64,000 nucleotides of DNA from a virus (taxonomy: Duplodnaviria > Caudoviricetes), in IMG/VR virus record IMGVR_UViG_3300008116_000002. The stretch is one strand, 5' to 3'. Position 1 is the first letter of the stretch; the number at the start of each line of letters is the position of its first letter. The notes below the pieces were generated by a model. That model was not told the DNA's origin. It was given only the letters and a program-made list of their open reading frames with translations, and ran no database searches. Shown in pieces: positions 26,296 through 58,923 of this stretch. The translations under genes and the position numbers were made by a program.

Positions 26296-27174
26296 ATGAA
26301 TAAAAAAGTAAAACCAATGCCGTTGCCTTCTATTCCTCAGTTGCCAAAAGCAGGAGAAGCACAGCAAGCTCAAAACCAGGGACGTCTTGAAGTAAAAATT
26401 GATGATTTGAGAAAAGAAAGAATTTTCATTGCAACTCCTTGCTATGGAGGCCAACTAACTGAGGCGTATTTTAGATCGACAATTCGACTTCTAACATTCT
26501 GCAATCAACATCAAATTCCTGTAGCATTCGGAACGATTGCAAATGAATCTTTAGTTACCCGTGCAAGAAATGTACTTGTAGCATATTTTCTACAAAGCAA
26601 CTTTACCCGCCTAATGTTCATTGATGCGGATATTGAATTTCAACTTGAAGATGTTATCAAGTTAATTGCACATGACAAAGATGTTGTTGTTGGTGCATAT
26701 CCTAAGAAAGGTGTTAATTGGCAGCGTATTCGTGAAAGCGTACGAGGAACACATGATTCTTTAGATGATAAGCAAATTGCTTCTTTTGGGAGTGACTATG
26801 CTATTAATTTTAAATTCATTAATCGTGATGCAAAACAGATTGCTATTGAGAACGGTCTAATTCGTTTACATGACGGTGCAACAGGCTTCATGATGATTAA
26901 GCGCGAAGTCATTGATAAAATGATTGAAGCATATCCTGAACTTAAATACAACAACGATCTAAATACTCCTAAAGAATTGGATCCCCACTTCTATGCTTTC
27001 TTCGACACAATGATCGATCCGAAAGACAAGCGTTATCTTTCTGAGGATTATACCTTCAGCCGTAGATGGCAAGACATCGGCGGAGAAATTTGGCTTGATC
27101 CTTCAATCTCCCTAAACCACTATGGTTCATTCAACTTCCAAGGTAATCCTTCGCAAATTATTCAAGTAGGATAA
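26296..27174 (+). CDS. GT-A fold glycosyltransferase-like protein
   Basis: IFIATPCYGG...ESLVTRARN...LMFIDADIEF (DxD)...ATGFMMIKR...YLSEDYTFSRRW. Confidence 0.7.
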   Translation: MNKKVKPMPLPSIPQLPKAGEAQQAQNQGRLEVKIDDLRKERIFIATPCYGGQLTEAYFRSTIRLLTFCNQHQIPVAFGTIANESLVTRARNVLVAYFLQSNFTRLMFIDADIEFQLEDVIKLIAHDKDVVVGAYPKKGVNWQRIRESVRGTHDSLDDKQIASFGSDYAINFKFINRDAKQIAIENGLIRLHDGATGFMMIKREVIDKMIEAYPELKYNNDLNTPKELDPHFYAFFDTMIDPKDKRYLSEDYTFSRRWQDIGGEIWLDPSISLNHYGSFNFQGNPSQIIQVG

Positions 27175-30153: not shown

Positions 30154-30750
30154 ATGGATCATGATTTAGAATTTGAGAAGCAATATTGGAATACTTGCGT
30201 TAATACTTTTTATGAGGACAAGAAGCAGTATACATATGCTAGTTATATGGGATTAACTAGAATGTGGGATAGTTTTGATGTACAACATAAAACCATTCTG
30301 GATATTGGTGGCGGTCCTAGTAGTATGCTTTTGCGATGCGTAAATTTAAAAAAAGGAAAGATAGTAGATCCCATAGATTATCCGCAATGGACAAAAGATA
30401 GATATGCAATTCATAATGTAGATGTTGAAGTAAACTATGGTGAAAATATAAATGAAAAAGGTTGGGATGAGGTTTGGATATATAATTGTTTACAACATGT
30501 TGAAAGTCCAGAAAAAATATTATTGAATGCGTTGAAGGCGGGAAAATTACTAAGACTTTTTGAATGGATAAACATTCCTCCGCATCCCGGACATCCTCAC
30601 GAGTTGACTTCTTCACTATTTTATAATATACTTACGGATGTTACTAAAACTAAATACTCCAGTGTAGTGAATCTTTGGGACGAGCCTTCGGCTTGTTATG
30701 GTGAAGCTTTTTATGATGTTTTTGAATCGTTAATATATGAGCAAAATTAA
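30154..30750 (+). CDS. class I SAM-dependent methyltransferase
   Basis: ILDIGGGPSS SAM-binding motif; YNCLQHV...PEKIL. Confidence 0.75.
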   Translation: MDHDLEFEKQYWNTCVNTFYEDKKQYTYASYMGLTRMWDSFDVQHKTILDIGGGPSSMLLRCVNLKKGKIVDPIDYPQWTKDRYAIHNVDVEVNYGENINEKGWDEVWIYNCLQHVESPEKILLNALKAGKLLRLFEWINIPPHPGHPHELTSSLFYNILTDVTKTKYSSVVNLWDEPSACYGEAFYDVFESLIYEQN

Positions 30751-31591
30751 AGTATCTGAATTATTTTATTCTATCCAAGGTGAGGGGCGTTATATGGGCG
30801 TCCCTTCAATCTTTCTTAGAACCTTCGGTTGTAATTTTACATGCGATGGATTTGGTGTACCGAAAGGATTTGTAAATCATGCGCGAGACATTGTCGCCAA
30901 AGACGTTCATCTTTATAAGACTTATAAAGAGCTTCCTCTTGTATCCACTGGTTGTGATTCATACGCTAGTTGGGATCCTCGTTTCAAGCATCTTTCTCCC
31001 GTTCTATCTTGTGACAGTGTTGCCGAGGCAATTGTCGAACTACTTCCACACAAAGAGTGGAAAGACGAACATCTAGTTATTACGGGTGGAGAACCCTTAT
31101 TGGGTTGGCAAAAAGCATACCCACTATTGTTAGAGCATCCTAAGATGAAAAATTTGGATGAACTAACTTTTGAGACTAATGGTACTCAGCGTTTGAATCC
31201 TGAGTTAGAAGAATATCTATTTCAGGAATGGACTCGGTTTGGTCGAGACTATGATAAGTTAACTTTTTCAGTATCGCCTAAATTATCGGTATCGGGTGAA
31301 TCAAAAGAAGATGCTTTGAAACCTGAAGTAATTAAACAGTATCAGGATGTAGGATATACTTATCTAAAGTTTGTTGTGGCTTCGGAAGAGGATTTAAATG
31401 AAGCTGAAGAATGGATTGAGGAATATAAAAAGGCAGGCTTTAGTGGCCCAGTATATTTTATGCCGGTAGGTGGAGTCGAATCTGTTTACGTCTTAAATAA
31501 TAAGAAGGTGGCAGAGTTGGCGTTGAAAAGAGGTTATAGGTATTCTGATAGATTGCAGGTGCCTTTATTTAAAAATGAATGGGGCACTTAA
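30737..31591 (+). CDS. queE: 7-carboxy-7-deazaguanine synthase (radical SAM)
   Basis: ELFYSIQGEG...PSIFLRTFGCNFTC...CDS, VITGGEPL, FETNGT, SVSPKL, LKFVV, R(L)QV..F..EWGT. Confidence 0.9.
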   Translation: MSKIKVSELFYSIQGEGRYMGVPSIFLRTFGCNFTCDGFGVPKGFVNHARDIVAKDVHLYKTYKELPLVSTGCDSYASWDPRFKHLSPVLSCDSVAEAIVELLPHKEWKDEHLVITGGEPLLGWQKAYPLLLEHPKMKNLDELTFETNGTQRLNPELEEYLFQEWTRFGRDYDKLTFSVSPKLSVSGESKEDALKPEVIKQYQDVGYTYLKFVVASEEDLNEAEEWIEEYKKAGFSGPVYFMPVGGVESVYVLNNKKVAELALKRGYRYSDRLQVPLFKNEWGT

Positions 31592-31768
31592 ATGTATGAA
31601 ACTCATAAACGAACTTTTTTAAGAGCAGTAACTTGGAGAATAGTTGCTACTCTTGTTACTGCAATATGGACAGGATTAAGCGGAGCCATTATTATAAACA
31701 TTTTTATGACAGTGGCACACTATATACATGAACGGGCATGGCTCAAGGTGAAGTGGGGAAGATTTTAA
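31592..31768 (+). CDS. small membrane protein, DUF2061-like (58 aa; below the ORF-track cut-off)
   Basis: Manual translation MYETHKRTFLRAVTWRIVATLVTAIWTGLSGAIIINIFMTVAHYIHERAWLKVKWGRF; fills the queE/PRTase gap exactly. Confidence 0.75.
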   Translation: MYETHKRTFLRAVTWRIVATLVTAIWTGLSGAIIINIFMTVAHYIHERAWLKVKWGRF

Positions 31769-32194
31769 ATGAGATATTCTTTTCAGGAGTTTGATGAAGA
31801 TATACATTATCTAGTTAAACAAATAGAACAATCTTCAAAAAAATATGATTATGTGGTTGGTATTAAACGAGGTGGTCTAATACCCGCAGTTTGTATCTCT
31901 AATGCATTAAAGGTTCCATTATATAGTTTATCTTGGTCTACTAGAGATTTTCCATATAGTGATACTCATAATTCAGCTCTTGCCCCACTCTCAAAAATAC
32001 TTTTGGTAGATGATCTTTGTGATTCAGGCAAAACCTTAATTGGAATAAAAGAGTTATATTCCTTTTGCGATATTGACACGGCGGTGTTATTATATAATGT
32101 GGATCAAATCCATGTACCAACATACTATGCTAAAGAATTTAGTAGAAAAGAACAAAAAGAATTTATTGATTTCTGGTGGGAAGATTATAAATAA
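31769..32194 (+). CDS. type I phosphoribosyltransferase (Gpt-like)
   Basis: VVGIKRGGLIPA and the PRPP-binding loop ILLVDDLCDSGKTL; C-terminal IDFWWE. Confidence 0.85.
   Translation: MRYSFQEFDEDIHYLVKQIEQSSKKYDYVVGIKRGGLIPAVCISNALKVPLYSLSWSTRDFPYSDTHNSALAPLSKILLVDDLCDSGKTLIGIKELYSFCDIDTAVLLYNVDQIHVPTYYAKEFSRKEQKEFIDFWWEDYK
32186..32193 (+). promoter_or_regulatory. T4-type late promoter upstream of folE
   Basis: Exact TATAAATA overlapping the PRTase stop, about 60 nt before the folE ATG. Confidence 0.7.
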
Positions 32195-32197
32195 CTA

Positions 32198-32250
32198 TGT
32201 CACATAAAGGTGACAAATTTCTAAACTCATATCCGTGTAAGGAAGGATTC
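32198..32250 (+). promoter_or_regulatory. structured folE leader (candidate cis-regulatory RNA)
   Basis: TGTCAC-ATAAAG-GTGACA hairpin, then AAACTC and ATCC...GGAT pairing that covers the GGAAGGA Shine-Dalgarno. Confidence 0.35.
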
Positions 32251-32254
32251 AAAA

Positions 32255-32932
32255 ATGTCATATAACAAAACAAAAACTGACCCTGAACTTGGTGCAAGGG
32301 TACATGAACATCTTGTAAAGATGGGCGTGGAAACTCCCTCATTTAAAACAACACTAGACCGTAAAGATAAGATTGCAGAAATTGAAAAAAGTTTCAGTCA
32401 TATCATGCAGGTATTGGGTCTTGATTTAGACGACGATAGTCTAGCAGAAACTCCAAAGCGTGTTGCTAAGATGTACGTGAATGAAATTTTCTGGGGACTA
32501 GATTACGACGCATTCCCTAAGTGTACTACTGTTGATAATAAGATGCATTACAATGAAATGGTAGTAGAACGTAATGTCATTGTTCAAAGTAATTGCGAAC
32601 ATCACTTTGTAGTTATTGACGGTCTTGCTACAGTAGCATATGTACCTAATAAAAAAGTATTGGGACTAAGTAAAATTAATCGTATTGTGGAATACTTTAG
32701 TAAGCGTCCACAGATTCAGGAACGTCTAACAGAGCAAATTTTTCATGCACTAAGTTATATTCTTGAAACAGATGATGTCGCAGTAATGATTGATGCTCAG
32801 CATTACTGTGTAAAATCTCGAGGCGTAGAAGATACGGGCAGTTCGACAGTAACAGTTCGTCTCGGTGGTGGCTTTAAAACCGATCCTGCAGCAAGAAATG
32901 AATTTTTAAGTATTGCCCGAATGGGAAAATAA
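32255..32932 (+). CDS. folE: GTP cyclohydrolase I
   Basis: ETPKRVAKMY, SNCEHHF, LGLSKINRIVEYFSKRPQIQERLT, HYCVKSRGV. Confidence 0.96.
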   Translation: MSYNKTKTDPELGARVHEHLVKMGVETPSFKTTLDRKDKIAEIEKSFSHIMQVLGLDLDDDSLAETPKRVAKMYVNEIFWGLDYDAFPKCTTVDNKMHYNEMVVERNVIVQSNCEHHFVVIDGLATVAYVPNKKVLGLSKINRIVEYFSKRPQIQERLTEQIFHALSYILETDDVAVMIDAQHYCVKSRGVEDTGSSTVTVRLGGGFKTDPAARNEFLSIARMGK

Positions 32933-33445
32933 ATGACAGTTAATATTATGGTTGATCTGGAGACAATGTCTACTAGATCACACGCTGCGATTTGTTCAAT
33001 AGGTGCAGTAAAGTTTGAAGGTAAAGAGATTCTCGATACCTTTTACTGCACCATTGACTTACGAACCTGCAAAGATGTTGGATTGCATATATCTAAAGAA
33101 ACTGTGGAGTGGTGGTCAAAGCAAAACAAAGAAGCACTAAGAGCTTTAACTAAAGACACAATACCTTTGCAAGAAGCCTTAGATAAATTTGAGATTTGGT
33201 TAGGTCCTAAAAGTTTACCTGTCTGGGGGAATGGTGCAGTATTTGATAATACAATTCTTGCTAATGCATATTTTTATTCGGGTAGAGAACCTCCTTGGAA
33301 ATGTTGGGATGACAGATGTTATCGAACGGTTAAGAATTTATTCCATTGGATTCCTGCAGACGAGAGAGAAGGTGTTTATCATAATGCTTTAGATGATGCT
33401 ATGTATCAGACAAAACATTTAATAAAGATTTTAGGTGAAGAATGA
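32933..33445 (+). CDS. DEDDh 3'-5' exonuclease (DexA-like)
   Basis: MVDLETM, WGNGAVFD, HNALDDA. Confidence 0.8.
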   Translation: MTVNIMVDLETMSTRSHAAICSIGAVKFEGKEILDTFYCTIDLRTCKDVGLHISKETVEWWSKQNKEALRALTKDTIPLQEALDKFEIWLGPKSLPVWGNGAVFDNTILANAYFYSGREPPWKCWDDRCYRTVKNLFHWIPADEREGVYHNALDDAMYQTKHLIKILGEE

Positions 33446-34806
33446 ATACGTATCGTAAAAGAATTGCATTTTGCTTAAGTGATCAACATACTATCCCTCA
33501 TGGTGGCCTTGGTCAATTTGCTAAATCCTTCGTTGAGACTTTTACCCCTCTCGGATATAAGATCGATATCATCACAGACAAACCCACAACCAATTTAGAT
33601 TTTAAAAAATATTTAGAATCAGTTGGTGCTAACTTCGAATGGTGTCCTCAACCAATATCATATAGTAATCACACCAAAACATTTATGTTTGAAGATTCCT
33701 ATAACTTTGAGAAGATGGCATCGTTTAGAGATGCTATGATGCATGCTTTAAGTAGAAATCTCTATGACATTATTATCTGCAACACATTAGAATCTTTTCC
33801 CGCAATCTATTCGTTGAACCTACACAAAAATGTACAAATTATTTACTATACTCACAACGAAAGTATGGTATTTCTTGATGACAGAACTTGGAAGAATGAA
33901 TTTACAGAATCCTTTAACGAGGTGTTCAACGCATTGATGCGTGTTAAAGGCATTACTATAGGTACACAGACAGAGAGAAATTTAGTAGAATTAAATCATA
34001 ATGGTATTTTAAATTCAGAGTGTTTACCGATTCCAATGACTGAAACTAGTTTGTTGGAAGAAAATTTTAATATTAGAGAAGGTATTCTTTGGATCGGTCG
34101 TTGGGAGCCAAGAAAGAATCCTGATGAATATATTCGAGTAATTAAAGAAACAGGATTGCCTGCAAAAATTATTACCAATACAAATGGTGCAAAAAAGTTC
34201 GCAGCTGAACTAGATGCAATAGGCGCTAAATATGAGATGAAGGTTGGGGTGTATGGAAAAGAGAAATCTGATTTTCTAAGATCTGCTAGGATAGCATATA
34301 ACCCTGCTATTCGAGAAAGTTTTGGATTGGCATTTTGGGAAACGCTTGGACATATGCCAACCTTTGCTTTAGATGGTATGTCTTGGTTGAAAAATTTTAA
34401 TAGTACTTTTTACTTTGCCGAAAGTAAAAATGTAATGGTCAATAAAATTAAAGATGCCTACGAAAAATATTCTAATCCAAAAGATTGGTATGATACTGGA
34501 GCATTAGAATATGTTAAGAACATTAATAACGAAGGTATCAAAAAATGGATTGCCTGCTTTGATAGTTTTAAACCAACTCAATCAAATTCAGATAAAGCAA
34601 AAATTAATGAAGTGGAAACCACATCATATAAAGAGTTCATTATAAGTCTAGAAAGAAAGGCTTTGGCTATCGACGATGTCAAATCTGTATTGACAAACAA
34701 AGGAAAATTTAATATAATCTATACTGATGAGAACACTTATTTAACCAAAGATAAAGACTTTATACCAACCGAAAGAAGTAACTCCTTAGAAAGTTTATTT
34801 GTATGA
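33442..34806 (+). CDS. GT-B (GT4-like) glycosyltransferase with a C-terminal clamp-binding-like motif
   Basis: PHGGLGQF, ILWIGRWEPRKNP, RESFGLAFWE (E-x7-E); ends SLESLFV. Confidence 0.8.
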   Translation: MNTYRKRIAFCLSDQHTIPHGGLGQFAKSFVETFTPLGYKIDIITDKPTTNLDFKKYLESVGANFEWCPQPISYSNHTKTFMFEDSYNFEKMASFRDAMMHALSRNLYDIIICNTLESFPAIYSLNLHKNVQIIYYTHNESMVFLDDRTWKNEFTESFNEVFNALMRVKGITIGTQTERNLVELNHNGILNSECLPIPMTETSLLEENFNIREGILWIGRWEPRKNPDEYIRVIKETGLPAKIITNTNGAKKFAAELDAIGAKYEMKVGVYGKEKSDFLRSARIAYNPAIRESFGLAFWETLGHMPTFALDGMSWLKNFNSTFYFAESKNVMVNKIKDAYEKYSNPKDWYDTGALEYVKNINNEGIKKWIACFDSFKPTQSNSDKAKINEVETTSYKEFIISLERKALAIDDVKSVLTNKGKFNIIYTDENTYLTKDKDFIPTERSNSLESLFV

Positions 34807-36092
34807 GCAAACAATTAGAATATGTTATATCAGGTCCTGCATACTTAAGACTGGGTGCAGAGCAATGTAATGATCCTGAGACTTTAGACATGATTAATAG
34901 CATGATTCTAAATACTGTTCACAATAAAAATAACCATCAGTTTTCTCTTTTGTATAATGGATTTACAGAAAAGAACTTTGGAGCCAAATTACAAAAGTAC
35001 AGACCAGCAATTAAAAATATTCATGCAGACTCAGGCGGTCTGCAAATTATTACTAGGGGTCTACAAAATACTCCTGAGACAAGAGAAAAGGTTTATACGA
35101 ATCAAGGAACCTATGCAGACATAGGTATGGCATTTGACGAAATTCCTGTTAAGGCAACAACTTCATCTGGCACTAGTTCTAAGATTGATACTAAGCGTCG
35201 CTATGTAGATATAGAAAATTTTGATGCTTATGCAAAGCAAACAGGTAAGAATGTAAAAGATCAGATTGAAAAATTTGATGCTATGGGAAGTAAATGCCGA
35301 CCATTTGTTATTGTACAAGGATCGGGTCATGATACCTATGCTAGATGGTCTGAGTTATTATTAAAAGAAATACCACAAAATTTACACAACAGAATAGGCG
35401 GAGTTGCTATGGGATCCGCTGCTTTAGGCATGGGTCCTTTGGAAGATGTTAAACGAGCATTTTATGCAACGACTGTTCCTTTTGATAAACCTTTTCATCT
35501 ACACGTTCTTGGTGTAGGTGCATTAAAACGAATCCTTCCTTATCTATTGTTTAGTCAAACTGGTTTATATGAAGGCATAGATATTTCATATGACTCAACT
35601 ACACATTCTATGTCGCTGGACAATGGATTGTTTTATTTCTCATTTAGCAAAAAGAATGCGCCAGGTGATTATGGCGGATCATCTGTAAAAATGGGAAGGG
35701 CATATTCTAATATTTACAGAACAGTATCTGAAGAAATTAATTCTGTATGTGGTACATCATATGACCCCGAGGAGTATCACAAGTTAATGAATATTGCTGT
35801 TGGACAATATTTAGAAGAAGGCGGAAAGTTTATTGACATTATGAGAGCAAGATTGGGGTTTATTCTAACCAATGTACATAATTTTACATATGACGTTTCT
35901 AATCTAATGAATTCTAAAGAAGCATTTTTAAAATTCTGCAGAGAAAAGAATTGTGAAAACGAATATGCCACATTATTTGACGTAAAAACAATTGATGACT
36001 TCAATCATTGGGAATCTCAGGTAGGTAAATTTATGGATTCAGAGCCAGTGAATATTGTAGCACCATCTTCACTTGAGGAGTTATTTGCATGA
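34803..36092 (+). CDS. dpdA: TGT-fold 7-deazaguanine DNA transglycosylase (DpdA-like)
   Basis: HADSGGLQ (TGT DSGGFQ motif), MAFDEIP, FVIVQG, LHVLGVG, SYDSTTHS; embedded among folE/queD/queE; ends SLEELFA. Confidence 0.75.
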   Translation: MSKQLEYVISGPAYLRLGAEQCNDPETLDMINSMILNTVHNKNNHQFSLLYNGFTEKNFGAKLQKYRPAIKNIHADSGGLQIITRGLQNTPETREKVYTNQGTYADIGMAFDEIPVKATTSSGTSSKIDTKRRYVDIENFDAYAKQTGKNVKDQIEKFDAMGSKCRPFVIVQGSGHDTYARWSELLLKEIPQNLHNRIGGVAMGSAALGMGPLEDVKRAFYATTVPFDKPFHLHVLGVGALKRILPYLLFSQTGLYEGIDISYDSTTHSMSLDNGLFYFSFSKKNAPGDYGGSSVKMGRAYSNIYRTVSEEINSVCGTSYDPEEYHKLMNIAVGQYLEEGGKFIDIMRARLGFILTNVHNFTYDVSNLMNSKEAFLKFCREKNCENEYATLFDVKTIDDFNHWESQVGKFMDSEPVNIVAPSSLEELFA

Positions 36093-36484
36093 TTATTAGG
36101 CAAGACGTTAGACCCAATAAAATGATCTGGGTTACCTTTCGCAAAGAAGGTATTCATTGTTATCCCGCAGCAGCCACAGATCCTAATCTAGCAACAGGAG
36201 ACAAATATGATGTTTCGTTCCTTGCCAATCCTCATCGGCATATTTTTCATTTCAGGGTGTGGATCTCCATCACTCACAATGACCGTGATATCGAGTTCAT
36301 CCAATTCAAACGGTGGTTGGAATCATTGTATTCAGGGGAAGAAGATTGTTTGCGATTGGACTACAAATCATGCGAGATGATGTCAGATGAATTATATGAA
36401 AGAATAACACAAAGATATCCTAATAGAGAAGTTTGGATTGAAGTATCCGAAGATGGTGAGAATGGTTCTTTTATTAAATACTGA
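36089..36484 (+). CDS. QueD-paralog T-fold protein, DpdL-like (putative CDG decarboxylase)
   Basis: FLANPHRHIF = LxxxHRHxF in place of the QueD CxxxHGH; SCEMM..ELY...EVSEDGENG resembles the QueD C-terminus. Confidence 0.55.
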   Translation: MIIRQDVRPNKMIWVTFRKEGIHCYPAAATDPNLATGDKYDVSFLANPHRHIFHFRVWISITHNDRDIEFIQFKRWLESLYSGEEDCLRLDYKSCEMMSDELYERITQRYPNREVWIEVSEDGENGSFIKY

Positions 36485-36491
36485 GGTTTAA

Positions 36492-37670
36492 ATGAATAAA
36501 TTATATTACATGGGCTTAGAGCCTTACGAAGGTAGATATACTCTTCAGCTTCAACAATGGAATGAAGAAGTATTTAAACGTCGAGGCATTAATTATGAAA
36601 TTATTCATGGTGATACCTTAGATAATTCTAAAGCAATTGTCACGGGACAAGTATTAGATGCACATGGAAGAAGCTATTATTCTTTGACGCAGATGGCAAA
36701 GCTTGTTCAAAAGATGAAAGCGGGCGAAATAAGATATGATGATGTAATTTTCTTTGAGGATATGTTTACCCCCGGTATAGAAGCTCTTCCATATATTATG
36801 GATCAGTGTGGCTGGGAATATCAACCAAGAGTTTTTGTTCGTTGTCTAGCACAGACTATTGATCCTGATGACTTTCTTCATGTCTGGGATATGCAGGAGT
36901 GGATGGCACATTATGAGAAGATGGTAAATGTATGGGTAAACGGAGTTCTTGCTTCTAATGAAGAAATGGTAGCCCATATGAAAATTGCAGGTTGGAATGT
37001 TCCTATGTATAATATTTCTGGTCTTGCTTTTAGTAAAGATGAAGTTAGAAGTAGAGTTAAGGAAATTAAACCTTTTCAGGAAAGAAAAAATCGAGTTGTC
37101 TTTGCTGCAAGATTCGATCAAGAAAAACAACCTGATTTCTTTATGGATATTGTAGAACATTATGGGCCTAATTCTGATATAGAATTTGCAGTATTGTCAG
37201 GTGGCCCATTACGCAGCAATGATGAAAAATATTTAGAAAGAGCAAAGCAACTTCAGGCTACTAATTCTAATTTTAAAATTTATGAAAATTTGCAAAAGAA
37301 TGAATATTATGAAATTCTTGCAGATTCGAAAGTTCTATTTAATTGCGCACTACAGGATTGGGTAAGTAATACTGCATCAGAAGCAGACGCTCTAGGAACA
37401 AATTGTTTATTTCCTGCGTATAGATCATTCCCTGAGACTTTTGCTAATGATGCAGAATGCCTTTATATCCCTTGGTCAAAAGAAGACGCTACAAATAAAC
37501 TTGAATGTTTATTAGAATTTCCTAGAAGCAATATAGGTAAACTAGCAGATTGGACTTCAGGAACTATTGATAGATGTTTAGATATTATTCTTTCAAATCC
37601 TGCAGCAAATGAGTATAATAGAAATGTTAAAACATATCGAAACTTTTTAGCACAAAGTAAATATGAATAA
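36492..37670 (+). CDS. GT-B glycosyltransferase
   Basis: VVFAARFDQEKQPDFF, LQKNEYYEIL, ALQDWVSNTASEADALG. Confidence 0.75.
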   Translation: MNKLYYMGLEPYEGRYTLQLQQWNEEVFKRRGINYEIIHGDTLDNSKAIVTGQVLDAHGRSYYSLTQMAKLVQKMKAGEIRYDDVIFFEDMFTPGIEALPYIMDQCGWEYQPRVFVRCLAQTIDPDDFLHVWDMQEWMAHYEKMVNVWVNGVLASNEEMVAHMKIAGWNVPMYNISGLAFSKDEVRSRVKEIKPFQERKNRVVFAARFDQEKQPDFFMDIVEHYGPNSDIEFAVLSGGPLRSNDEKYLERAKQLQATNSNFKIYENLQKNEYYEILADSKVLFNCALQDWVSNTASEADALGTNCLFPAYRSFPETFANDAECLYIPWSKEDATNKLECLLEFPRSNIGKLADWTSGTIDRCLDIILSNPAANEYNRNVKTYRNFLAQSKYE

Positions 37671-38652
37671 TACTGTTATTGTAACGGGTGCCGCCGGTTA
37701 TATCGGTGGTACCATATGCGCTAAGCTCAAAGAAAAGGGGTATTCTGTTGTAGGTATAGATAGAAGAGAATTGCCCTCTCATCTATATCAATACATAGAC
37801 CATTTCCTTAAGGTAGATTTTACACATGAGTTTTCTTTAAGGCGTATTGACAGAAAACCGTTGGCGGTTATTCATTGCGCCGGAACAAGTTTAGTTGGTC
37901 CTAGTATTGAAAATCCAAGTGGTTATTATGACAATAATGTAGTTAAAACTTTAAAGTATATAGATTACATAAGATCTCATTCTCCATATACTAAATTTAT
38001 TTTTAGTAGTAGTGCATCTGTATATGGTAATCCGATGAGTTCAAAACCAATTACTGAAAATTTTGACACTAACCCGATCTCGCCATACGGTCAGTCTAAA
38101 TTGATGACTGAGATGATGCTAAAATCTTTTAAAAGTGCCTATGATTTAAAATATGTTTCATTCAGATATTTTAATGCGTGCGGTGCCTTAAGCGATGGCG
38201 CACATGGTCAGGATCCCGATGCAACGCATATATTTGCCAGACTCTTTGAATCAATAAAAAAAGAAACACAATTCTTTTTAAATGGCAAAGATTATGTAAC
38301 AAAGGATGGAACCTGCATACGAGATTATGTCCATGTAGAGGATATAGCCAATGCACACATAATAGCTATTGAAAAAAATATCGAAGGGATATATAATATA
38401 GGATCAGATACAGGTACGTCTAATCTAGAAATTATTAAACAGGTAGGTAAATTTTTCGGGAAACCTCTATCAATAGAGATTAAAGAACAAAGAATGGGGG
38501 ATCCCGCAATTTTAGTTGCAAGTGCTAAAAAGTTATCTGATGAAACAGGCTGGAAAGCAGAACATAGTATCAAAAAAATTATTAAAGATTTAAATGATTG
38601 GTATGACTCTGAAAACTATGCCAAGAGGACTAAGGCAATCATCCCTCTATAA
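37663..38652 (+). CDS. galE: UDP-glucose 4-epimerase
   Basis: VTGAAGYIGG, FSSSASVYG, YGQSK (YxxxK), FRYFNACG, DGTCIRDYVHVEDIA. Confidence 0.9.
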   Translation: MNNTVIVTGAAGYIGGTICAKLKEKGYSVVGIDRRELPSHLYQYIDHFLKVDFTHEFSLRRIDRKPLAVIHCAGTSLVGPSIENPSGYYDNNVVKTLKYIDYIRSHSPYTKFIFSSSASVYGNPMSSKPITENFDTNPISPYGQSKLMTEMMLKSFKSAYDLKYVSFRYFNACGALSDGAHGQDPDATHIFARLFESIKKETQFFLNGKDYVTKDGTCIRDYVHVEDIANAHIIAIEKNIEGIYNIGSDTGTSNLEIIKQVGKFFGKPLSIEIKEQRMGDPAILVASAKKLSDETGWKAEHSIKKIIKDLNDWYDSENYAKRTKAIIPL

Positions 38653-38667
38653 AGACTCTGCTTGCTG
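38624..38667 (+). ncRNA. candidate preQ1-class-I-like riboswitch aptamer (variant) upstream of queD
   Basis: P1 AGAGG(38624-28)/CCTCT(38644-48); loop ends GCAATCATC; 3' tail ATAAAGAC; loop AGGCA/GGCAA can pair with TGCTT/TTGCT downstream; SD AGGAG at 38682-86. Confidence 0.5.
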
Positions 38668-38693
38668 TCAAACTTGCTCATAGGAGACTAGAG

Positions 38694-39221
38694 ATGGCAA
38701 AATTTTATTCAACAAAAACTTATGGTAATGACAGAGGATTGTCATGTTGTTTCAGACAATGGCGTGCTACACATAGTCATTGTTCAACATTGCATGGTTA
38801 CTCAATTGGTATTAAACTCATATTTGAATGCGATACACTAGATGATAAAAATTGGTGTATGGACTTTGGTGGTCTTAAAGAATTCAAAGCATGGGCAGAT
38901 CATATGTTCGATCACACATTAGTTGTTGCAGAAGACGACCCGCTGTTAGATCGTTTTAAAGAAATGAGCGGCTGGAGTTCTAATCCAGAGCATGACGGCA
39001 ATCCTGAGCGAGTACAAGTAGAACCATATCGCAGATCGGGTGTTTGTGATCTACGTATTGTACCTTCTGTAGGATGTGAAATGTTTGCTAAACTATGCTA
39101 TGACAAAATGGCAGAACTGTTGGCATCAGGTAGTATGCGCTATCCAATCAATCCAAGCGTAAGAGTAAAATCTGTAGAAGTATTTGAACATGCAGGTAAC
39201 TCTGCTACATATGAAGGATAA
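38694..39221 (+). CDS. queD: 6-carboxy-5,6,7,8-tetrahydropterin synthase
   Basis: HSHCSTLHGY, WCMDFGGLK...FDHTL, GCEMFAK, SVEVFEHAGNSA. Confidence 0.9.
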   Translation: MAKFYSTKTYGNDRGLSCCFRQWRATHSHCSTLHGYSIGIKLIFECDTLDDKNWCMDFGGLKEFKAWADHMFDHTLVVAEDDPLLDRFKEMSGWSSNPEHDGNPERVQVEPYRRSGVCDLRIVPSVGCEMFAKLCYDKMAELLASGSMRYPINPSVRVKSVEVFEHAGNSATYEG

Positions 39222-42464: not shown

Positions 42465-43058
42465 ATGGCTGATACTTGGCAATTAGATGTACATACAGTA
42501 AACGCATATTGTTATTACAGTGGTGTGTTTGATAAGTTAATGGTTGATGATATAGTAAAAATGGGCGATGAGCTGTTACTAGGTGATGCACAGGTCGGCG
42601 GAGATTTTGCATCGGTTGGCGGCAAAAATGAAAAGATCAGAAAAACTACAATCGGCTGGGTACCTACTACTGAGCAAAATGCCTGGTTATATAGAATGTT
42701 AACCGATGCAGTTCAAAGAGCAAACAAAGAATGGTTTGGATTTGATCTTAATCATATTGAATCTTTACAATATTCTATCTACAATAAAGGTGACTTCTAT
42801 GATGCGCATGTAGACCATCACTATCAGGGCGTAGGACAGTATCCAAGAAAGTTAAGTTTTTCTATGCAGTTATCTGATCCTGAGGACTATAAAGGTGGCG
42901 ACGTTATGCTAATTACCTCACAGGACCCATTTCCTATTCCAAAAGAAAGAGGTACAATCACATTCTTCCCATCCTATACTTTGCATGAAGTTAAACCTGT
43001 TACAAAAGGAACTCGCAGAGCTTTAGTTGGTTGGGTACATGGGCCACGTTGGAAATGA
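42465..43058 (+). CDS. 2OG-Fe(II) oxygenase (prolyl-hydroxylase/PKHD-like)
   Basis: FYDAHVD (HxD), RKLSFSMQLS, FFPSYTLHEVKPVTKGTRRALVGW. Confidence 0.88.
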   Translation: MADTWQLDVHTVNAYCYYSGVFDKLMVDDIVKMGDELLLGDAQVGGDFASVGGKNEKIRKTTIGWVPTTEQNAWLYRMLTDAVQRANKEWFGFDLNHIESLQYSIYNKGDFYDAHVDHHYQGVGQYPRKLSFSMQLSDPEDYKGGDVMLITSQDPFPIPKERGTITFFPSYTLHEVKPVTKGTRRALVGWVHGPRWK

Positions 43059-46964: not shown

Positions 46965-47795
46965 ATGCACACTGATGAAATTACATATGACGCCTTTATT
47001 CGAAGATGGTTCGGTAGGCTAGGTAACAATATACAGCAATTATCTAATGGCATTTACTTTTGTAAAAAAGAAAATGCTCACTTCACTTCCCCAGAACATC
47101 CTATGATCAATGCGATTGATCTATGTTTTGGTACAACAAAATATACTATTCCGGAAACTTCTCATAATTGGTTATTTTTCTTTAACGGACCAGAAGCAGA
47201 TTTTGTTTTTGATGTGGATGATTTAAATAAAAACAGAAAGAAAATTTGCGAGGATTTTATACTACCAAACTTAAAGGTAGATCAAACTAAAATAAAAGAA
47301 CCTTTACCTGACGATCACTTAATTATACACTTAAGAAGCGGTGATCTTTTTACTCATTGGCCAAGTACTCACCCTCAAAATCCTTTGGTTTATTACATGA
47401 GTTTACTTAACTTATTTGAATTCAATGCTACTGTCGTTTCCGAGGATGAGAGGCATCCTTTTATAGAAGTGTTCAAAAAATTAAGAGTGCCTGTAGAAGT
47501 ATTATCTGTGGAGGATACATATGCTAAGTTGTTGAGAGCTGTAAGTTTAGCTACCTCAGGTATAGGTAGTTTTCCTGTATCCGCTGCCCTTTGTTCTAAA
47601 AATATAAAAAGATTTTATTGTACAAATTTACATCAAGAATATAGTTTAAATCATTTTATGTTAAAAGAACATCTTGAAGTTTATGTAATGGATCTAGGTG
47701 ATAAATATATAAAAGTAGGTGAATGGAAATACTCCCCTGAAACCTTTGAGAAGTTTTATAATTATAACGAACATACATTATTTAGGAGACTATAA
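46965..47795 (+). CDS. GT11-like (alpha-1,2-fucosyltransferase-like) protein
   Basis: [11 protein letters not shown] and IIHLRSGD resemble the GT11 GGLGNQ and HVRRGD motifs. Confidence 0.55.
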
Positions 47796-47796
47796 T

Positions 47797-48810
47797 ATGG
47801 ACAAAAGAGTTGCCTTAATTACAGGCATTACCGGGCAAGACGGTTCTTATCTTGCAGAACTTCTTTTGGAAAAAGGTTATGAGGTACATGGCGTTATTCG
47901 TCGTAGTTCCTCAATCAATACTTCCCGCATAGATCATATCTATAGTAATTCAAATCTACATTTACACTATGGCGATGTAACTGATTCATTGTCCATAATG
48001 AATATTCTCAAAAAATATAATCCAACTGAAATTTATAATTTGGCAGCACAAAGTCATGTTAAGGTTTCTTTTGAAACTCCTGAATATACAGCAATGGTAG
48101 ATGGTCTTGGAACTTTAAAAATTCTTGAAGCTGTTAGAATTTTAAATATGGAAAAGACAACTAAAATTTACCAAGCATCGACTTCAGAATTATATGGTTT
48201 GGTGCAAGAAATTCCTCAGAAAGAAACTACTCCTTTTTATCCTAGATCTCCATATGGTGTAGCAAAGTTATATGCATATTGGATCGTAAAGAACTATCGT
48301 GAATCGTATAATATGTTTGCTTGTTCTGGTATTCTTTTCAACCATGAATCACCAAGACGAGGTTTTAATTTTGTAACTAAAAAGGTAGTTGATGGATTGG
48401 CGAATATCGGAGCAGGATTTCAAGATTGTTTGTACATGGGAAATCTAAATGCGAAAAGAGATTGGGGACATGCAAAAGACTATGTCAAGGCTATGTGGCT
48501 TATTCTACAACAGGACACTCCTGAAGATTTTGTCATAGCTACCGGCGAACAATATTCGGTTAAAGAATTTATTGAAAGATGTGCTCCCTATTATGGTATG
48601 AAGATCCGCTGGGAAGGCGAAGGACTTGACGAAGTCGGCATTAATGATTATACCGGCAAAGTAATTATTCGTGTTGACCCTAAGTATTTTAGACCGGCAG
48701 AAGTGGAAACTCTTCTCGGAGATGCCACAAAGGCAAAGAGTGTTCTAGGATGGACACCTGAATATTCTTTTGACGATCTAGTCAAAGAAATGTGTACACA
48801 ATTTAATTGA
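47797..48810 (+). CDS. gmd: GDP-mannose 4,6-dehydratase
   Basis: [60 protein letters not shown]; real ATG at 47797 after an AGGAG SD. Confidence 0.97.
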
Positions 48811-48817
48811 GGACAAT

Positions 48818-49444
48818 ATGTATCCTGAGTCATATCAAGAGGTAAATAGAAAAGTAACTGAAAGATACTTAAACTACAATAATGGTTTTTTTATTGAGGT
48901 TGGCGGTGCAGATGGCGTTACTCAAAGTAATACCCTACACCTAGAAAGGTATAAAAATTGGACGGGGGTTTTAGTTGAGCCAAATATTGAGGCGGCAAAA
49001 AAATGCCAAATGAACAGACCCAACTCTAAAGTCTTTAATTATGCTTTAGTTGCAGATGATTATCAAGACGAAGAATTAACCATGTTACATCGAGCTTGGT
49101 ATAATGGCGATCCTGGTCTAACTTCCTCCGCCCATAATTCTAGTATAAACGATATACCTGAATGGAATGGCTTTAATTACAAGTTTAATATACCTGCAAC
49201 AACTTTAACTAATGTGTTAGAAAACTTGAACATGGAAAATCAAACAATAGATTTTCTATCATTGGATGCGGAAGGATATGAATTAGAAATCTTAAAAGGG
49301 TTAGATATGAAAAGATTCTGTCCAAAAATTATTTTAATAGAATGGCATCTTGATCTGCAGGATGTTTTTAACGTGTTAGATTCTACACATAAACTGGAAG
49401 AACAGTTATCTAAACATGATTATGTTTTTATTCTAAAGGATTAA
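48818..49444 (+). CDS. FkbM-family methyltransferase
   Basis: FFIEVGGADG...SNT...GVLVEP...IDFLSLDAEGYELEILKG. Confidence 0.88.
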   Translation: MYPESYQEVNRKVTERYLNYNNGFFIEVGGADGVTQSNTLHLERYKNWTGVLVEPNIEAAKKCQMNRPNSKVFNYALVADDYQDEELTMLHRAWYNGDPGLTSSAHNSSINDIPEWNGFNYKFNIPATTLTNVLENLNMENQTIDFLSLDAEGYELEILKGLDMKRFCPKIILIEWHLDLQDVFNVLDSTHKLEEQLSKHDYVFILKD

Positions 49445-49446
49445 CT

Positions 49447-50412
49447 ATGGAAATGTATAAAAGTAGTAAAATATTTGTTGCGGGGCATAATGGATTGGTT
49501 GGTTCCGCAATTGTAAGAAAGTTACAAAACGAAGGATATACTAACTTAGTATTGAGGACTAAGGCTGAACTTGATCTTAGAAATCAAGATGCAGTTAAAG
49601 ACTTTTTTAAAATAGAAAAGCCTGAATTTGTATTTCTTGCTGCAGCAAAAGTCGGAGGTATTAATTATAACGCAGAATACCCTGCCGATTTTATCTATGA
49701 CAATTTGATGATACAAACAAATGTTATAGACACTGCATATAGAAACGGTGTAAAAAAATTATTGTTTCTGGGATCGGCTTGTATATACCCGAAAGTTACT
49801 CCTCAGCCAATTAAAGAAGAATATCTATTGACTGCTCCGTTGGAGCCGACAAATGAAGGATATGCTTTGGCAAAAATTACTGGTTTGAGAATGTGCGAAT
49901 ATTATAGAAAACAGTATGGGTTTAATGCAATTAGTTTAATGCCAGCAAATCTATATGGCACTAACGACAATTTTGATCCTGAAAAATGTCACGTTATTCC
50001 TGGGATGATTACTAAATTTAATGCAGCTAAAAAGAATAATACTGATGTAACATTCTGGGGTGACGGTACACCTACTAGAGAATTTTTGTTCGTAGATGAT
50101 TTAGCAGATGCTTGCTTATTTTTAATGCATAATTATAATGAAAGCGAATTTATTAATGTAGGTTCTGATGTAGAAATTGAGATTAAGGAACTATGTGAAA
50201 TTATAAGAAAAGAAATTGGGTTCGAAGGAAACATCATTTGGGATGAATCTAAACCAAACGGAACTCCTAGAAGAAAAATGGACAATACTAGATTGTTTAA
50301 TATGGGATGGAGACCGAAGATAGATTTTAATACCGGACTGGCACAAACAATTAATTGGTTTCTTACAGAAAAAGATCGTATAAAAACTCTTATGTCTAGG
50401 ATCCCAGGATGA
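49447..50412 (+). CDS. fcl: GDP-L-fucose synthase (WcaG; possibly acting as ColC)
   Basis: IFVAGHNGLVGSAI, AAAKVGGI, FLGSACIYPK, YALAK, PANLYG, HVIPG, PTREFLFVDDLA. Confidence 0.95.
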   Translation: MEMYKSSKIFVAGHNGLVGSAIVRKLQNEGYTNLVLRTKAELDLRNQDAVKDFFKIEKPEFVFLAAAKVGGINYNAEYPADFIYDNLMIQTNVIDTAYRNGVKKLLFLGSACIYPKVTPQPIKEEYLLTAPLEPTNEGYALAKITGLRMCEYYRKQYGFNAISLMPANLYGTNDNFDPEKCHVIPGMITKFNAAKKNNTDVTFWGDGTPTREFLFVDDLADACLFLMHNYNESEFINVGSDVEIEIKELCEIIRKEIGFEGNIIWDESKPNGTPRRKMDNTRLFNMGWRPKIDFNTGLAQTINWFLTEKDRIKTLMSRIPG

Positions 50413-51578
50413 AATGGCCTTTAATGGGTGAGACTATCACTTTGGGTGATAGATTAAAAATGGCACACTTTGCTTTGACCGCTCCTAAGTTTACCAACGG
50501 AGAAAAAGTAAAGAAGTTTGAAAAAGAATGGAACGAGTGGTTGGGATCTAAACATTCTTTGTATGTGTCTTCCGGAAGCACTGCAAACTTTTTATTGGTT
50601 GCTGCAGTAAAAGAATTATACGGTCTTAAGAATGGGGACAAAGTTCTTTTACCTGCATGCACATGGATGACAAATGTTGCACCTATCATGCAACTAGGCC
50701 TTGAACCAGTATTTTGCGATATTAATCTAGATAATTTTAGTTTCGATGTTGTGGACGTGGTAAAGCTATCGAAGAAGCATGATATTAAGATGATCTTCGT
50801 AACTCATCTGTTAGGTTTTTCTGCAAATAATGAAGCTTTAAGAACAATTTTTCCGAGAGCTATTATTATAGATGACATATGCGAATCACATGGATGTAAA
50901 GATGTATATGGTAAAAAGCATGGTTCGAATAGTTTAGGTGCAACATTTAGTTTCTATTTTGGTCACCATATGTCTACAATTGAAGGTGGAATGATTTCTA
51001 CTAACAATACTGATCTATATGATCTAATGAAACTAAAGAGAAGTCATGGTATGGCTAGAGAATCTCTTCGTTTCGACGAATATGCGAAAGCGTATCCAAA
51101 TATAGATAAGCAGTTTTTGTTCGTCACTGATGGATATAACTTTAGAAATCATGAAATATGTGCAGTGCTTGGTTCTTCCCAGCTAAAGCGGTTGGACAAA
51201 ATGATTAGTATTCGTAATAGAAATCACACTTTATTCACTAAAATTATTGACAAATATTCTAATCTCTTTTATAATATTAAAGATCATCCTAGCAATAGTA
51301 GTTTTTGTTTGCCCTTCATATGTAGGTCAAATGAGATTATGCTTGCAATGAAAGAGAAGTTTATTAAGTATGGTATTGAATATAGACCAGTTGTTTCAGG
51401 TAATCTTTTAGAGCAACCGTTCTTGGCTAATTATGTAATCGATACTGATAAACAAAGAACAAATGCAGACATTGTACATACGCAAGGTGTTTATGTAGGC
51501 AATAACCACTTTGTTACCGAAGAAGATATGAAATTTTTAGAAAAGGTCGTAGGAGAGATAAATGAATCGTTTAGGTGA
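50409..51578 (+). CDS. colD: DegT/DnrJ-family PLP enzyme, ColD-like GDP-4-keto-6-deoxymannose 3-dehydratase
   Basis: SSGSTAN, DDICESHG, FSFYFGHHMSTIEGGM with His at the usual Schiff-base Lys position; directly follows gmd/fcl. Confidence 0.7.
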   Translation: MKWPLMGETITLGDRLKMAHFALTAPKFTNGEKVKKFEKEWNEWLGSKHSLYVSSGSTANFLLVAAVKELYGLKNGDKVLLPACTWMTNVAPIMQLGLEPVFCDINLDNFSFDVVDVVKLSKKHDIKMIFVTHLLGFSANNEALRTIFPRAIIIDDICESHGCKDVYGKKHGSNSLGATFSFYFGHHMSTIEGGMISTNNTDLYDLMKLKRSHGMARESLRFDEYAKAYPNIDKQFLFVTDGYNFRNHEICAVLGSSQLKRLDKMISIRNRNHTLFTKIIDKYSNLFYNIKDHPSNSSFCLPFICRSNEIMLAMKEKFIKYGIEYRPVVSGNLLEQPFLANYVIDTDKQRTNADIVHTQGVYVGNNHFVTEEDMKFLEKVVGEINESFR

Positions 51579-51912
51579 ACTAATAGAACAAATTATTCAT
51601 GATACGGTAAATCGTGTATTAGAAGATGACCAGATGCCAGATTCTGAATATATTACAACAGATAATCTAGGTGAAATAATTGAGAAGCTAGCTATTATTC
51701 ATATTCGTATGTGGATGTTGGAAGATGCTATGCAGGCAGCGAAATCTGATGAGGAACTTGCCGATCTCAAAAGAAAGGTTGATATTTGTTTTAAGGTTAA
51801 GCGGCCTAAATATGTTCAAGCAATTAATCTTCTAGTAGATGATGCTATTAGAACAGGAAAGTCTTTGAGAGAAGATTCTGTAAAATTATATAAAGGCGTA
51901 GAGCATGGCTAA
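51562..51912 (+). CDS. hypothetical helical protein (DUF4254-like)
   Basis: LGEIIEKLAIIHIRMWMLED...KRKVDICF. Confidence 0.45.
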   Translation: MNRLGELIEQIIHDTVNRVLEDDQMPDSEYITTDNLGEIIEKLAIIHIRMWMLEDAMQAAKSDEELADLKRKVDICFKVKRPKYVQAINLLVDDAIRTGKSLREDSVKLYKGVEHG

Positions 51913-52903
51913 AATAATATTCTTTAATCACTATCATCGAGGCGATCTTTTAACTAGTAGAGAATTTGTTAGACAAATAACTAAAGAATTGCAGGATGTA
52001 GAATTTGCGTATATGCATTTTAATCATCCAAAATTAACTAGAGATTTAGATATTCCGAAAATAGGAGACCCCTCTTCTTTGGATCCAAAAACTCCTTTTT
52101 ATCAGGATGGGGATGACCTATATGTTAATACATGGATAGGTTGTTTCTGGGATATCTTTTGTCAGCATGGCGGCATTAATATGTTTTCTCTTTGGCATCA
52201 ATGGGAAAAAGTTTATGAAACAATTAATGCGGTGTTTGGTAGTAATTTGAAATTAAATTCGGAAAAAGAATATTATCTTCCAAGTATAGATTATTCCAGG
52301 TATAATTTAAAAAATGTAAATGCCTATTTAGAACAATCCAAAGATAGAAAAAAGATTCTATTATGTAATGGTGTTCCTAAATCTGGACAATCTTTCGCAG
52401 ACAATATGTCTAGTTTTATACATGAAACTGCAAAAAAATATTCTAATATAGATTTTATTTGTACGGAAAAATTTGAAAAAGTTTTAGATAATATTCTGTT
52501 TACAGATGATATTATCGGAGACAACGAGATTGAAGATAATAGAGCACCCTGGGAAGATAGACAAACTAATCTGTGTGATCTGTATGAGATTTCTTATCTA
52601 AGTACAAAATGCGAAGCTATTGTTGGTAAAAACTCTGGTCCTTTTGTATTTTGTGAAACTAAAGAAAATTATATGGATCCTGAGAAAAAATTCTTATCCT
52701 ATAATGTTAGTTGGGGTCCTGCATTTCATACTGAAAAGAAAAGTCCTACGGAAACTATGTCACATGGGCTAAAGTATAACTGCGATTATATGATACTTGC
52801 TATCGAAGGTCCTTACTTAGAAATAGGTAATTTGAATAATCTTACGGATGACGATAAAATTAATATACAAGTTTCATTAAATGAATTAGCACAGAGTCTA
52901 TGA
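51905..52903 (+). CDS. hypothetical, probable GT-B-like sugar transferase
   Basis: Context in the glycan island; HRGDLL N-terminus, VGKNSGPF C-terminal motif resembling GT9-type enzymes. Confidence 0.4.
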   Translation: MAKIIFFNHYHRGDLLTSREFVRQITKELQDVEFAYMHFNHPKLTRDLDIPKIGDPSSLDPKTPFYQDGDDLYVNTWIGCFWDIFCQHGGINMFSLWHQWEKVYETINAVFGSNLKLNSEKEYYLPSIDYSRYNLKNVNAYLEQSKDRKKILLCNGVPKSGQSFADNMSSFIHETAKKYSNIDFICTEKFEKVLDNILFTDDIIGDNEIEDNRAPWEDRQTNLCDLYEISYLSTKCEAIVGKNSGPFVFCETKENYMDPEKKFLSYNVSWGPAFHTEKKSPTETMSHGLKYNCDYMILAIEGPYLEIGNLNNLTDDDKINIQVSLNELAQSL

Positions 52904-55837: not shown

Positions 55838-55844
55838 AATAATT

Positions 55845-56513: not shown

Positions 56514-56515
56514 AT

Positions 56516-58096: not shown

Positions 58097-58099
58097 ATT

Positions 58100-58915: not shown

Positions 58916-58923
58916 AAAATGAA

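Follow-up and report, generated by a model that had tools for sequence, protein, structure and literature searches.

We analysed a stretch of 64,000 nucleotides (the window) from the virus record IMGVR_UViG_3300008116_000002, whose source is an abundant uncultured freshwater T4-like phage, a myovirus. Positions 30154-39221 hold a run of 12 open reading frames (ORFs), which includes genes for a 7-deazaguanine DNA-modification pathway, two glycosyltransferases (GT1 and GT2) and the UDP-glucose 4-epimerase GalE. The central result is the linkage of the GT2 family to DpdL, the predicted decarboxylase of 7-carboxy-7-deazaguanine (CDG): every testable viral contig among the nearest relatives returned by our searches pairs a GT2-family gene with a neighbouring DpdL, in varying gene order (145 of 145). 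We propose, with a confidence that stays a little short of even, that the cluster makes a 7-deazaguanine base and inserts it into the phage's own DNA, in the manner of systems making deoxy-7-deazaguanosine (dDG), and that GT2 would be a dedicated glycosyltransferase which then glycosylates this base. A sequence-only reading of the window had described the run as a candidate sugar-hypermodified base system, and this interpretation survives in part: the pathway without QueC and the tie of GT2 to it are supported, but the ties of GT1 and of a methyltransferase-like gene are not.

Association of GT2 with DpdL across phages

We fetched 80 viral contigs with GT2 and 80 with the DpdL profile and scored them with hidden Markov models built in this analysis. 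A locus was regarded as testable when there was enough room beside the gene, upstream for GT2 loci and downstream for DpdL loci. DpdL was found within 5 kb in every testable locus fetched with GT2 (78 of 78), and a GT2-family gene, usually 100-300 nt away, in every one fetched with DpdL (67 of 67). The pairing extends to distant GT2 relatives (31-39% identity) from an exhaustive search, which have a DpdL-like neighbour in 5 of 5 cases; three of these also adjoin FolE, radical S-adenosylmethionine (radical-SAM) or 6-pyruvoyltetrahydropterin synthase (PTPS) genes, and some of their contigs encode family-A polymerases and one a resolvase. A trio of distant DpdL, GT2 and radical-SAM genes (L182:5668-7858) lies together with resolvase and RES-domain genes on one contig, so the module may also reside on plasmids or within bacterial islands. 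The GT2 family is a large one: its close relatives in metagenomes number in the thousands, and it comprises 859 clusters at 50% identity (E up to 0.001).

The fetched loci fall into three groups, counted here for the 72 well-flanked ones (6 kb or more on either side of DpdL). Group A (22 loci) is syntenic with the window and has a DpdA2-like enzyme. Group B (20 loci) has a long GT2 together with GalE and a different protein of 510-570 aa that resembles tRNA-guanine transglycosylase (TGT), while group C (30 loci) has a short GT2 of 355-366 aa and lacks GalE. QueE, FolE, the exonuclease, DpdA, DpdL, GT2, GalE and QueD are all kept in group A (22 of 22 contigs), so the synteny of the cluster is not due to chance. 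The exonuclease is found in none of the group B or C loci, and a phosphoribosyltransferase match is present in 50 of the 72. GalE accompanies all long-type GT2 genes (42 of 42) and no short-type one (0 of 30), and we infer that it may supply GT2 with a sugar donor of the UDP-galactose type. GT1 occurs in 20 of 22 group A loci, 2 of 20 in group B and 0 of 30 in group C; judged by these counts it is lineage-restricted and not tied to the pathway. Both glycosyltransferases had been assigned to the pathway by the sequence-only reading, which proposed to look for their co-occurrence with dpdA across phages. The assignment stands for GT2 with GalE, given that GT2 adjoins DpdL at every testable locus, and is weakened for GT1.

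Wherever the DpdA2-like enzyme is missing, DpdL and GT2 are accompanied by the family of 510-570 aa, whose members carry the motifs DSGGFQ and HFLG(L/T)G (for example L088:5215-6837, which is PA5oct EST35_0316, L083:4965-6506 and L093:3126-4832). These proteins had no Pfam match in PA5oct or in groups B and C, and they are probably a further, unnamed DpdA subfamily. In jumbo-phage clusters of group B, cytidylyltransferase-like, HIT, second epimerase and DegT genes lie among the FolE, phosphoribosyltransferase and PTPS genes (L083:16463-19219; L084:10075-10659), and the extra sugar-nucleotide genes interleaved there suggest that these clusters make a more elaborate sugar.

Among cultured phages, the GT2-DpdL pair is carried by seven groups, including BUCT-ZZ01, ACP17, BUDD, X1, the PA5oct group, Phosso and BCSR5. 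The order is DpdA, GT2, DpdL in ACP17, GT2, DpdA, DpdL in BUDD, TGT-like, GT2, DpdL in PA5oct, and DpdL, GT2 in Phosso; in BCSR5, DpdL and GT2 are 3 kb apart. Closest to the cluster among cultured phages is that of the freshwater cyanophage BUCT-ZZ01, with nearly the same order (QueE, phosphoribosyltransferase, QueD, FolE, GT1, DpdA, DpdL, GT2). Between BUCT-ZZ01 and the window, GT2 is the best conserved protein (65% identity), compared with 40% for GT1, 37% for DpdA and 34-36% for DpdL. The Pseudomonas jumbo phage PA5oct (Wroclawvirus) likewise groups DpdL (57% identity), a GT2-family gene and QueE together, and its DNA resists enzymes cutting at G-containing sites (PMC12191111), but its GT2 is of the short type, GalE and GT1 are absent and the TGT-like enzyme takes another form, of 540 aa. 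A megablast search with the whole cluster found no match among cultured phages. The stretch recurs with hardly a change in metagenomes of fresh water and lakes, from at least 14 studies.

The linkage runs in one direction. GT2 is absent from the whole records of the DpdL phages phiST, RHph_I1_18, Ahp1, D479, Bakedbeans, Roos and MA9V-3, by a search whose positive controls responded. As GT2 implies DpdL but DpdL occurs without GT2, GT2 looks like an optional later step after DpdL. Besides, the DpdL of the window is closer to that of the GT2-less RHph_I1_18 (60% identity) than to that of the GT2-bearing BUCT-ZZ01, so DpdL would do the same job with or without GT2. The idea that GT2 is required for making dDG was dropped, because phiST makes dDG without it.

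Two of the GT2-less phages have DpdL as the C-terminal domain of a longer protein, namely Vibrio phage Bakedbeans (L172:6212-7363, 383 aa) and Chryseobacterium phage MA9V-3 (L177:6395-7276, 293 aa). Neither these fusion proteins, N-terminal parts included, nor the proteins encoded after DpdL in phages lacking GT2 matched Pfam; what DpdL is fused to may be a clue to its reaction.

Enzymes of the cluster

FolE, QueD and QueE together convert GTP into CDG, which is established for these families. Profile and sequence matches identify FolE, QueE and a DpdA-family protein with the TGT fold in the window, all members of the phage 7-deazaguanine DNA-modification set, although the TIGR QueE models match the QueE-like protein partly and below their cut-offs. 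The PTPS/QueD-family protein has CSTLHGY instead of the zinc/catalytic motif CxxxHGH. The variant FRQW...HC..LHGY is common to the QueD of the window, phiST, ACP17 and BUCT-ZZ01; HGY stands for HGH and FRQW replaces the region of the first zinc histidine, and the variant is conserved (window 38694-39221; L090:5352-5981; L002:7024-7557). It is presumably active, because phiST has the same variant and makes dDG. For the phosphoribosyltransferase, the nearest NCBIfam family is xanthine phosphoribosyltransferase. The DUF2061-like protein recurs in some deazaguanine clusters of other lineages (42-86% identity), where membrane proteins of 58-68 aa lie inside the clusters of unrelated lineages (L058, L100, L108, L122, L157).

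DpdL was defined by the motif LxxxHRHxF and predicted to be a CDG decarboxylase by Cui, Hutinet et al. (NAR 2023; PMC10516641). According to the published prediction, it decarboxylates CDG to 7-deazaguanine, which DpdA then swaps for guanine in DNA, and in phiST dG is fully replaced by plain dDG (PMC10516641). The sequence LANPHRHIF of the window protein fits this motif, its residues H49, R50, H51 and F53 are invariant in 12 homologues, and it is 32% identical to phiST CGPG_00067. The dDG system of phiST (FolE, QueD, QueE, DpdL and DpdA3; PMC10516641) resembles the window in FolE, QueE, the HGY-variant QueD, an LxxxHRHxF-type DpdL, the lack of QueC and an exchange enzyme of the TGT superfamily. 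It differs in that MazG-like and P-loop genes stand in place of GT2, GT1, GalE and the phosphoribosyltransferase. The exchange enzymes also differ: the phiST DpdA3 (CGPG_00065) has 259 aa versus 429 aa in the window, and no similarity between the two was detected.

The transglycosylase of the window contains DSGGLQ and LHVLGVG, in which DSGG(L/F)Q and GVG are motifs of the TGT superfamily. It is 34.5% identical to its ACP17 homologue and, over the whole length, 29% identical (E 1e-57) to a TGT-like gene of Schizotequatrovirus that lies between queF, folE and queC. By sequence comparison it is DpdA2-like, not DpdA3. The DpdA2 of nt-1 inserts preQ0 into plasmid DNA in E. coli (PMC10516641). The DpdA2 systems of the Vibrio phages nt-1, KVP40 and PG216 (dPreQ0, dG+) share this full-length homologous transglycosylase and a T4-like background with the window, but they have QueC, QueF and an ArcS-like gene, lack DpdL and GT2, and show low published modification levels. 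Searches of PDB sequences with DpdA and the DpdL profile gave marginal matches or none.

In agreement with the earlier statement that neither queC nor queF is visible in the window, a scan of all frames found no QueC-type PP-loop motif (SGGxDS) and no QueF motif; Gat-QueC was not searched for separately. For the genome outside the window we used as a proxy G001, a complete syntenic relative (222 kb, rated 100% complete). The search for queC that had been suggested for the rest of the genome was made in this proxy, which has no match to PF06508 (QueC). The pathway without QueC is thus supported by FolE, QueD, QueE, the motif-bearing DpdL and the DpdA-family transglycosylase, and the dDG branch fits because QueC was not found in the window or in G001. 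The sequence-only reading had left insertion of CDG or of 7-deazaguanine side by side; the latter is favoured and CDG is less likely, because DpdL is present. For PF00303 (the thymidylate synthase/dCMP hydroxymethylase family), there is no match in G001 and none among the scanned ORFs of the window.

The AlphaFold2 model of GT2 is confident (pLDDT 95.6) and has a GT4 fold. Its structural matches are sucrose-phosphate synthase (Z 27.1), BshA (Z 26.1), MshA, PimA, BGluT, LmbT and SenB, all in the range of Z 23-27. Across 70 homologues (22-84% identity), R207 and K212 of the donor site are invariant and E297 is nearly so; in the N-terminal domain, E10, R15, Y16, T17, D56, R60, D90, D124 and D127 are invariant or nearly so. 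With this model, the fold and the kept donor-site residues, GT2 looks catalytically competent, and the residue set kept in the N-terminal domain suggests that the homologues act on one common, specific acceptor. The small-acceptor GT4 enzymes (BshA, MshA, PimA, SenB, LmbT and BGluT) align with GT2 over about 310-350 residues and share the Arg/Lys phosphate-binding pair and the Glu of the C-terminal domain, but they are only 10-14% identical and do not share its invariant N-terminal acceptor-domain set. GT1 also has a GT4-like GT-B fold (pLDDT 88.5), with Foldseek matches to sucrose-phosphate synthase, TarM, MshA and BshA (E about 1e-11). The complex prediction for GT2 and DpdL scored 0.00, which gives no answer and is evidence neither way.

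Layout and surroundings of the cluster

The 12 ORFs are co-directional, and both their coordinates and the gene content given by the sequence-only reading were confirmed by family matches (Table 1). Most junctions overlap or abut, as had been described, the overlaps being of 4-14 nt. The methyltransferase-like gene and QueE overlap by 14 nt; the pairs QueE/DUF2061, DUF2061/phosphoribosyltransferase and FolE/exonuclease abut; overlaps of 4 nt occur at exonuclease/GT1, GT1/DpdA and DpdA/DpdL; a gap of 7 nt separates DpdL from GT2, and GT2 and GalE overlap by 8 nt.

Table 1. The ORFs of the run between the homologues of T4 genes 55 and 47, with positions in the window
Product	Position	Strand	Basis
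SAM-methyltransferase-like protein	30154..30750	+	phrog_3603 (unnamed PHROG), DIGGGP motif
QueE-like radical-SAM 7-carboxy-7-deazaguanine synthase	30737..31591	+	phrog_2076, 185 bits, E 2.6e-54
DUF2061-like small membrane protein, 58 aa	31592..31768	+	PF09834 E 1.4e-4, 22.6 bits vs cut-off 23.1
Xanthine/guanine-type phosphoribosyltransferase	31769..32194	+	PF00156 E 5e-12; NF006613 E 1e-9; phosphoribosyl pyrophosphate (PRPP) loop LLVDDLCDSGKT
GTP cyclohydrolase I FolE	32255..32932	+	NF006824 322.5 bits vs 202-bit cut-off
Rv2179c-like 3'-5' exonuclease	32933..33445	+	PF16473 E 1e-46
GT1, GT4-like GT-B glycosyltransferase with extra C-terminal domain	33442..34806	+	AlphaFold2 model; Pfam sub-threshold only
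DpdA2-like putative DNA-guanine transglycosylase, TGT fold, 429 aa	34803..36092	+	phrog_10773; TIGR00430 E 1e-5
DpdL, T-fold predicted CDG decarboxylase, 131 aa	36089..36484	+	LANPHRHIF
GT2, GT4-like retaining-type GT-B glycosyltransferase	36492..37670	+	PF00534 (Glycos_transf_1) 27.2 bits, passes cut-off
UDP-glucose 4-epimerase GalE	37663..38652	+	TIGR01179 288.9 bits vs 262.3-bit cut-off
Phage-type QueD (6-carboxytetrahydropterin (CPH4) synthase)	38694..39221	+	PF01242 E 1.6e-16; phrog_2389; motif CSTLHGY

The first ORF had been counted as a methyltransferase of the cluster, and this did not hold. It has no Pfam or NCBIfam match and only the DIGGGP motif of SAM type besides its unnamed PHROG. 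Since it is missing from all related loci, and its homologues among cultured phages are found only in Synechococcus phage ACG-2014f, where they adjoin a glycosyltransferase gene, it is probably not part of the system.

The cluster occupies the slot between T4 genes 55 and 47. Upstream lie tail fibre genes and those for the large terminase (12881), tail sheath (14631), portal (17909) and major head protein (24305), and these head and tail genes are followed by UvsY, UvsW, a gp55-like sigma factor and then the 12-ORF run; a DUF2452 gene, gp47 and gp46 come downstream. Directly after gp46, a 2-oxoglutarate-Fe(II) oxygenase is encoded at 42465-43058, which could be an ordinary T4-like auxiliary gene or a base or sugar hydroxylase. 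Ahead of uvsY, a 292-aa protein (26296-27174) shows a weak match to Anp1, a mannosyltransferase family (E 2e-5, below cut-off). A scan of the region for promoters and terminators gave no more hits than shuffled sequence did; positions 34690-34718, inside the 3' end of GT1 and 85 nt before the dpdA start, match the sigma-70 consensus perfectly (TTGACA-17-TATAAT).

Further sugar genes form an island of about 13 kb around the clamp-loader gene (47719-60526), with sugar-nucleotide and glycosyltransferase functions. It encodes a GDP-mannose 4,6-dehydratase, an FkbM methyltransferase, an epimerase/reductase, a DegT aminotransferase, a GT10 fucosyltransferase, a family-2 glycosyltransferase, a carbamoyltransferase, a GT47-like protein, a Methyltransf_24 protein and a dehydratase. 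Another dehydratase is encoded at 62427-63428.

Proposed modification and its alternatives

The proposed route to a glycosylated base would have the following steps. FolE, the phage-type QueD and QueE would turn GTP into CDG, and DpdL would strip its carboxyl group to give 7-deazaguanine, which fits the absence of QueC. The DpdA2-like transglycosylase, whose relatives have been validated for the reaction, would swap guanine in DNA for the deazapurine. The guanine released by DpdA might be salvaged by the enzyme resembling xanthine-guanine phosphoribosyltransferase to GMP and returned to the GTP pool, which feeds FolE. As gene linkage suggests, GT2 would put a hexose from a UDP-galactose-type donor made by GalE on the deazaguanine, either when the base is already in DNA or before its insertion, and GT1 might conceivably add a second sugar in this lineage. 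The outcome would be a bulky adduct in the major groove that shields DNA from restriction enzymes and from modification-dependent nucleases and glycosylases.

Applied to the phages themselves, the proposal says that G in the DNA of the freshwater lineage is replaced by a hexose-bearing 7-deazaguanine, and that this also applies to phages like PA5oct and ACP17 and to many jumbo phages; the hexose might be joined as a C-glycoside at C7 or C8 and, in the freshwater lineage, lengthened by GT1 to a disaccharide. To this wider statement we give rather less than an even chance. Two published observations bear on it. PA5oct DNA resists five restriction enzymes with G in their sites and is recognised by nucleases directed against hypermodified DNA; the authors of that study infer a modified G (PMC12191111). 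When the DpdA and DpdL of ACP17 were expressed in E. coli, leaving out the GT2-family gene that lies between them, no dDG was formed, and the authors of that work suggest that other enzymes may be required (PMC10516641).

Several points weigh against a sugar on this base. The glycosylation step is a proposal from gene linkage, and the loci counted for this linkage are the nearest relatives returned by searches, not independent samples. 7-Deazaguanine has neither a hydroxyl nor an amine at C7, and dDG offers no obvious acceptor atom; a sugar on it would have to be bound C-glycosidically or through N2 or O6, for which we know of no precedent in DNA. The closest solved folds of GT2 act on small molecules (malate, inositol phosphate, ergothioneine and tetrahydrobiopterin), while the T4 alpha-glucosyltransferase comes at rank 29 among its structural matches (Z 20.7), and BLASTP found no sequence similarity of GT1 or GT2 to T4 a-gt or b-gt (E above 0.8). 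GT1 and, less plausibly, GalE could serve the biology of the sugar island instead; the case for GT1 in the pathway is weakened because this separate island offers it another job.

Some of these points would suit a phage that makes plain dDG, as in phiST, with the glycosyltransferases and GalE at other work on glycans of virion proteins or the host surface and placed here since the interval between genes 55 and 47 is hyperplastic. We consider this unlikely. In its favour, phiST has DpdL, no glycosyltransferase and plain dDG; the window has other sugar genes besides its 13-kb glycan island; GT1 shows no tie to the pathway; the methyltransferase-like gene travels with a glycosyltransferase in cyanophages that no search with DpdA, DpdL or GT2 returned; and dDG is without an obvious acceptor. 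What it leaves unexplained is the pairing of GT2 with DpdL at all testable loci, in all five distant relatives and in cultured phages with shuffled gene orders, and also the strong conservation of the acceptor domain of GT2. Quite improbable in our judgement is that GT2 acts on a free small molecule, such as CDG, 7-deazaguanine, a pterin intermediate or a nucleotide product of the phosphoribosyltransferase, so that its product does not reach DNA or is a transient intermediate of base synthesis. The best structural matches of GT2 are small-molecule GT4 enzymes, among them the UDP-glucose:tetrahydrobiopterin glucosyltransferase (Z 23.6), FolE, a PTPS-family enzyme and a phosphoribosyltransferase share the cluster, and the failure of ACP17 DpdA and DpdL alone to give dDG in E. 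coli (PMC10516641) could be read in this way. However, every cluster also has a base-exchange enzyme of TGT fold together with QueE, which points to a deazapurine in nucleic acid; phiST makes dDG without GT2; and the GT4 fold matches are generic and do not single out pterin enzymes.

It is very unlikely that the sugar goes on another DNA base, for instance a hydroxymethylated pyrimidine as in T4, with the deazaguanine pathway merely co-located. T4-like phages do glycosylate hydroxymethylcytosine (hmC), and the cluster lies in the slot that holds the alpha-glucosyltransferase gene in T4; we checked the order 55, a-gt, 47 given by the sequence-only reading, and it holds. The hmC glucosylation of T4 by a-gt and b-gt is also alike in plan to what we propose, namely a base modification followed by an optional transfer from a UDP-sugar by a GT-B enzyme. 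It differs in that a purine would be modified here, with no hydroxymethyl acceptor and no similarity of GT1 or GT2 to a-gt. Moreover, GT2 tracks DpdL and no pyrimidine-modifying gene, and a T4-style hydroxymethylpyrimidine acceptor is unlikely because G001, the complete relative, has no gene of the PF00303 family, dCMP hydroxymethylase included; T4-like hmC glycosylation was dropped as a candidate for this reason. We give an equally slight chance to a TGT-like enzyme that modifies phage or host tRNA, the sugar ending up on a tRNA deazaguanine like that of galactosyl- or mannosyl-queuosine. The TGT fold is ancestrally that of a tRNA enzyme, and glycosylated queuosine occurs in eukaryotic tRNA. 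But no route to queuosine is evident, because there is no QueC- or QueF-type motif in the window, and phiST and CP220 replace all G in DNA. The nearest characterised relatives of the transglycosylase are DNA enzymes, as the insertion of preQ0 into plasmid DNA by nt-1 DpdA2 illustrates (PMC10516641), and PA5oct DNA is restriction-resistant at G-containing sites (PMC12191111).

In conclusion, a glycosylated 7-deazaguanine made by a GT2-bearing cluster would be new. The sequence-only reading knew of no such base in phage DNA, and the literature that we searched likewise contains no description of it and no mention of the GT2 family. To our knowledge, none of the eight phage 7-deazaguanine derivatives published so far bears more than a small group, and DNA glycosylation is known only on pyrimidines. 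That this is truly a new DNA base we hold to be possible, at rather under an even chance. If true, it would be the first glycosylated purine in natural DNA, from a GT4-like family with a deazapurine acceptor, and thereby a new class of natural DNA base with probably new enzyme chemistry. It would explain why DNA of the PA5oct type is sensed as hypermodified and why the reconstitution of ACP17 DpdA and DpdL failed in E. coli, and the sugar-bearing base would be environmentally common, because the stretch recurs almost unchanged in the lake metagenomes.

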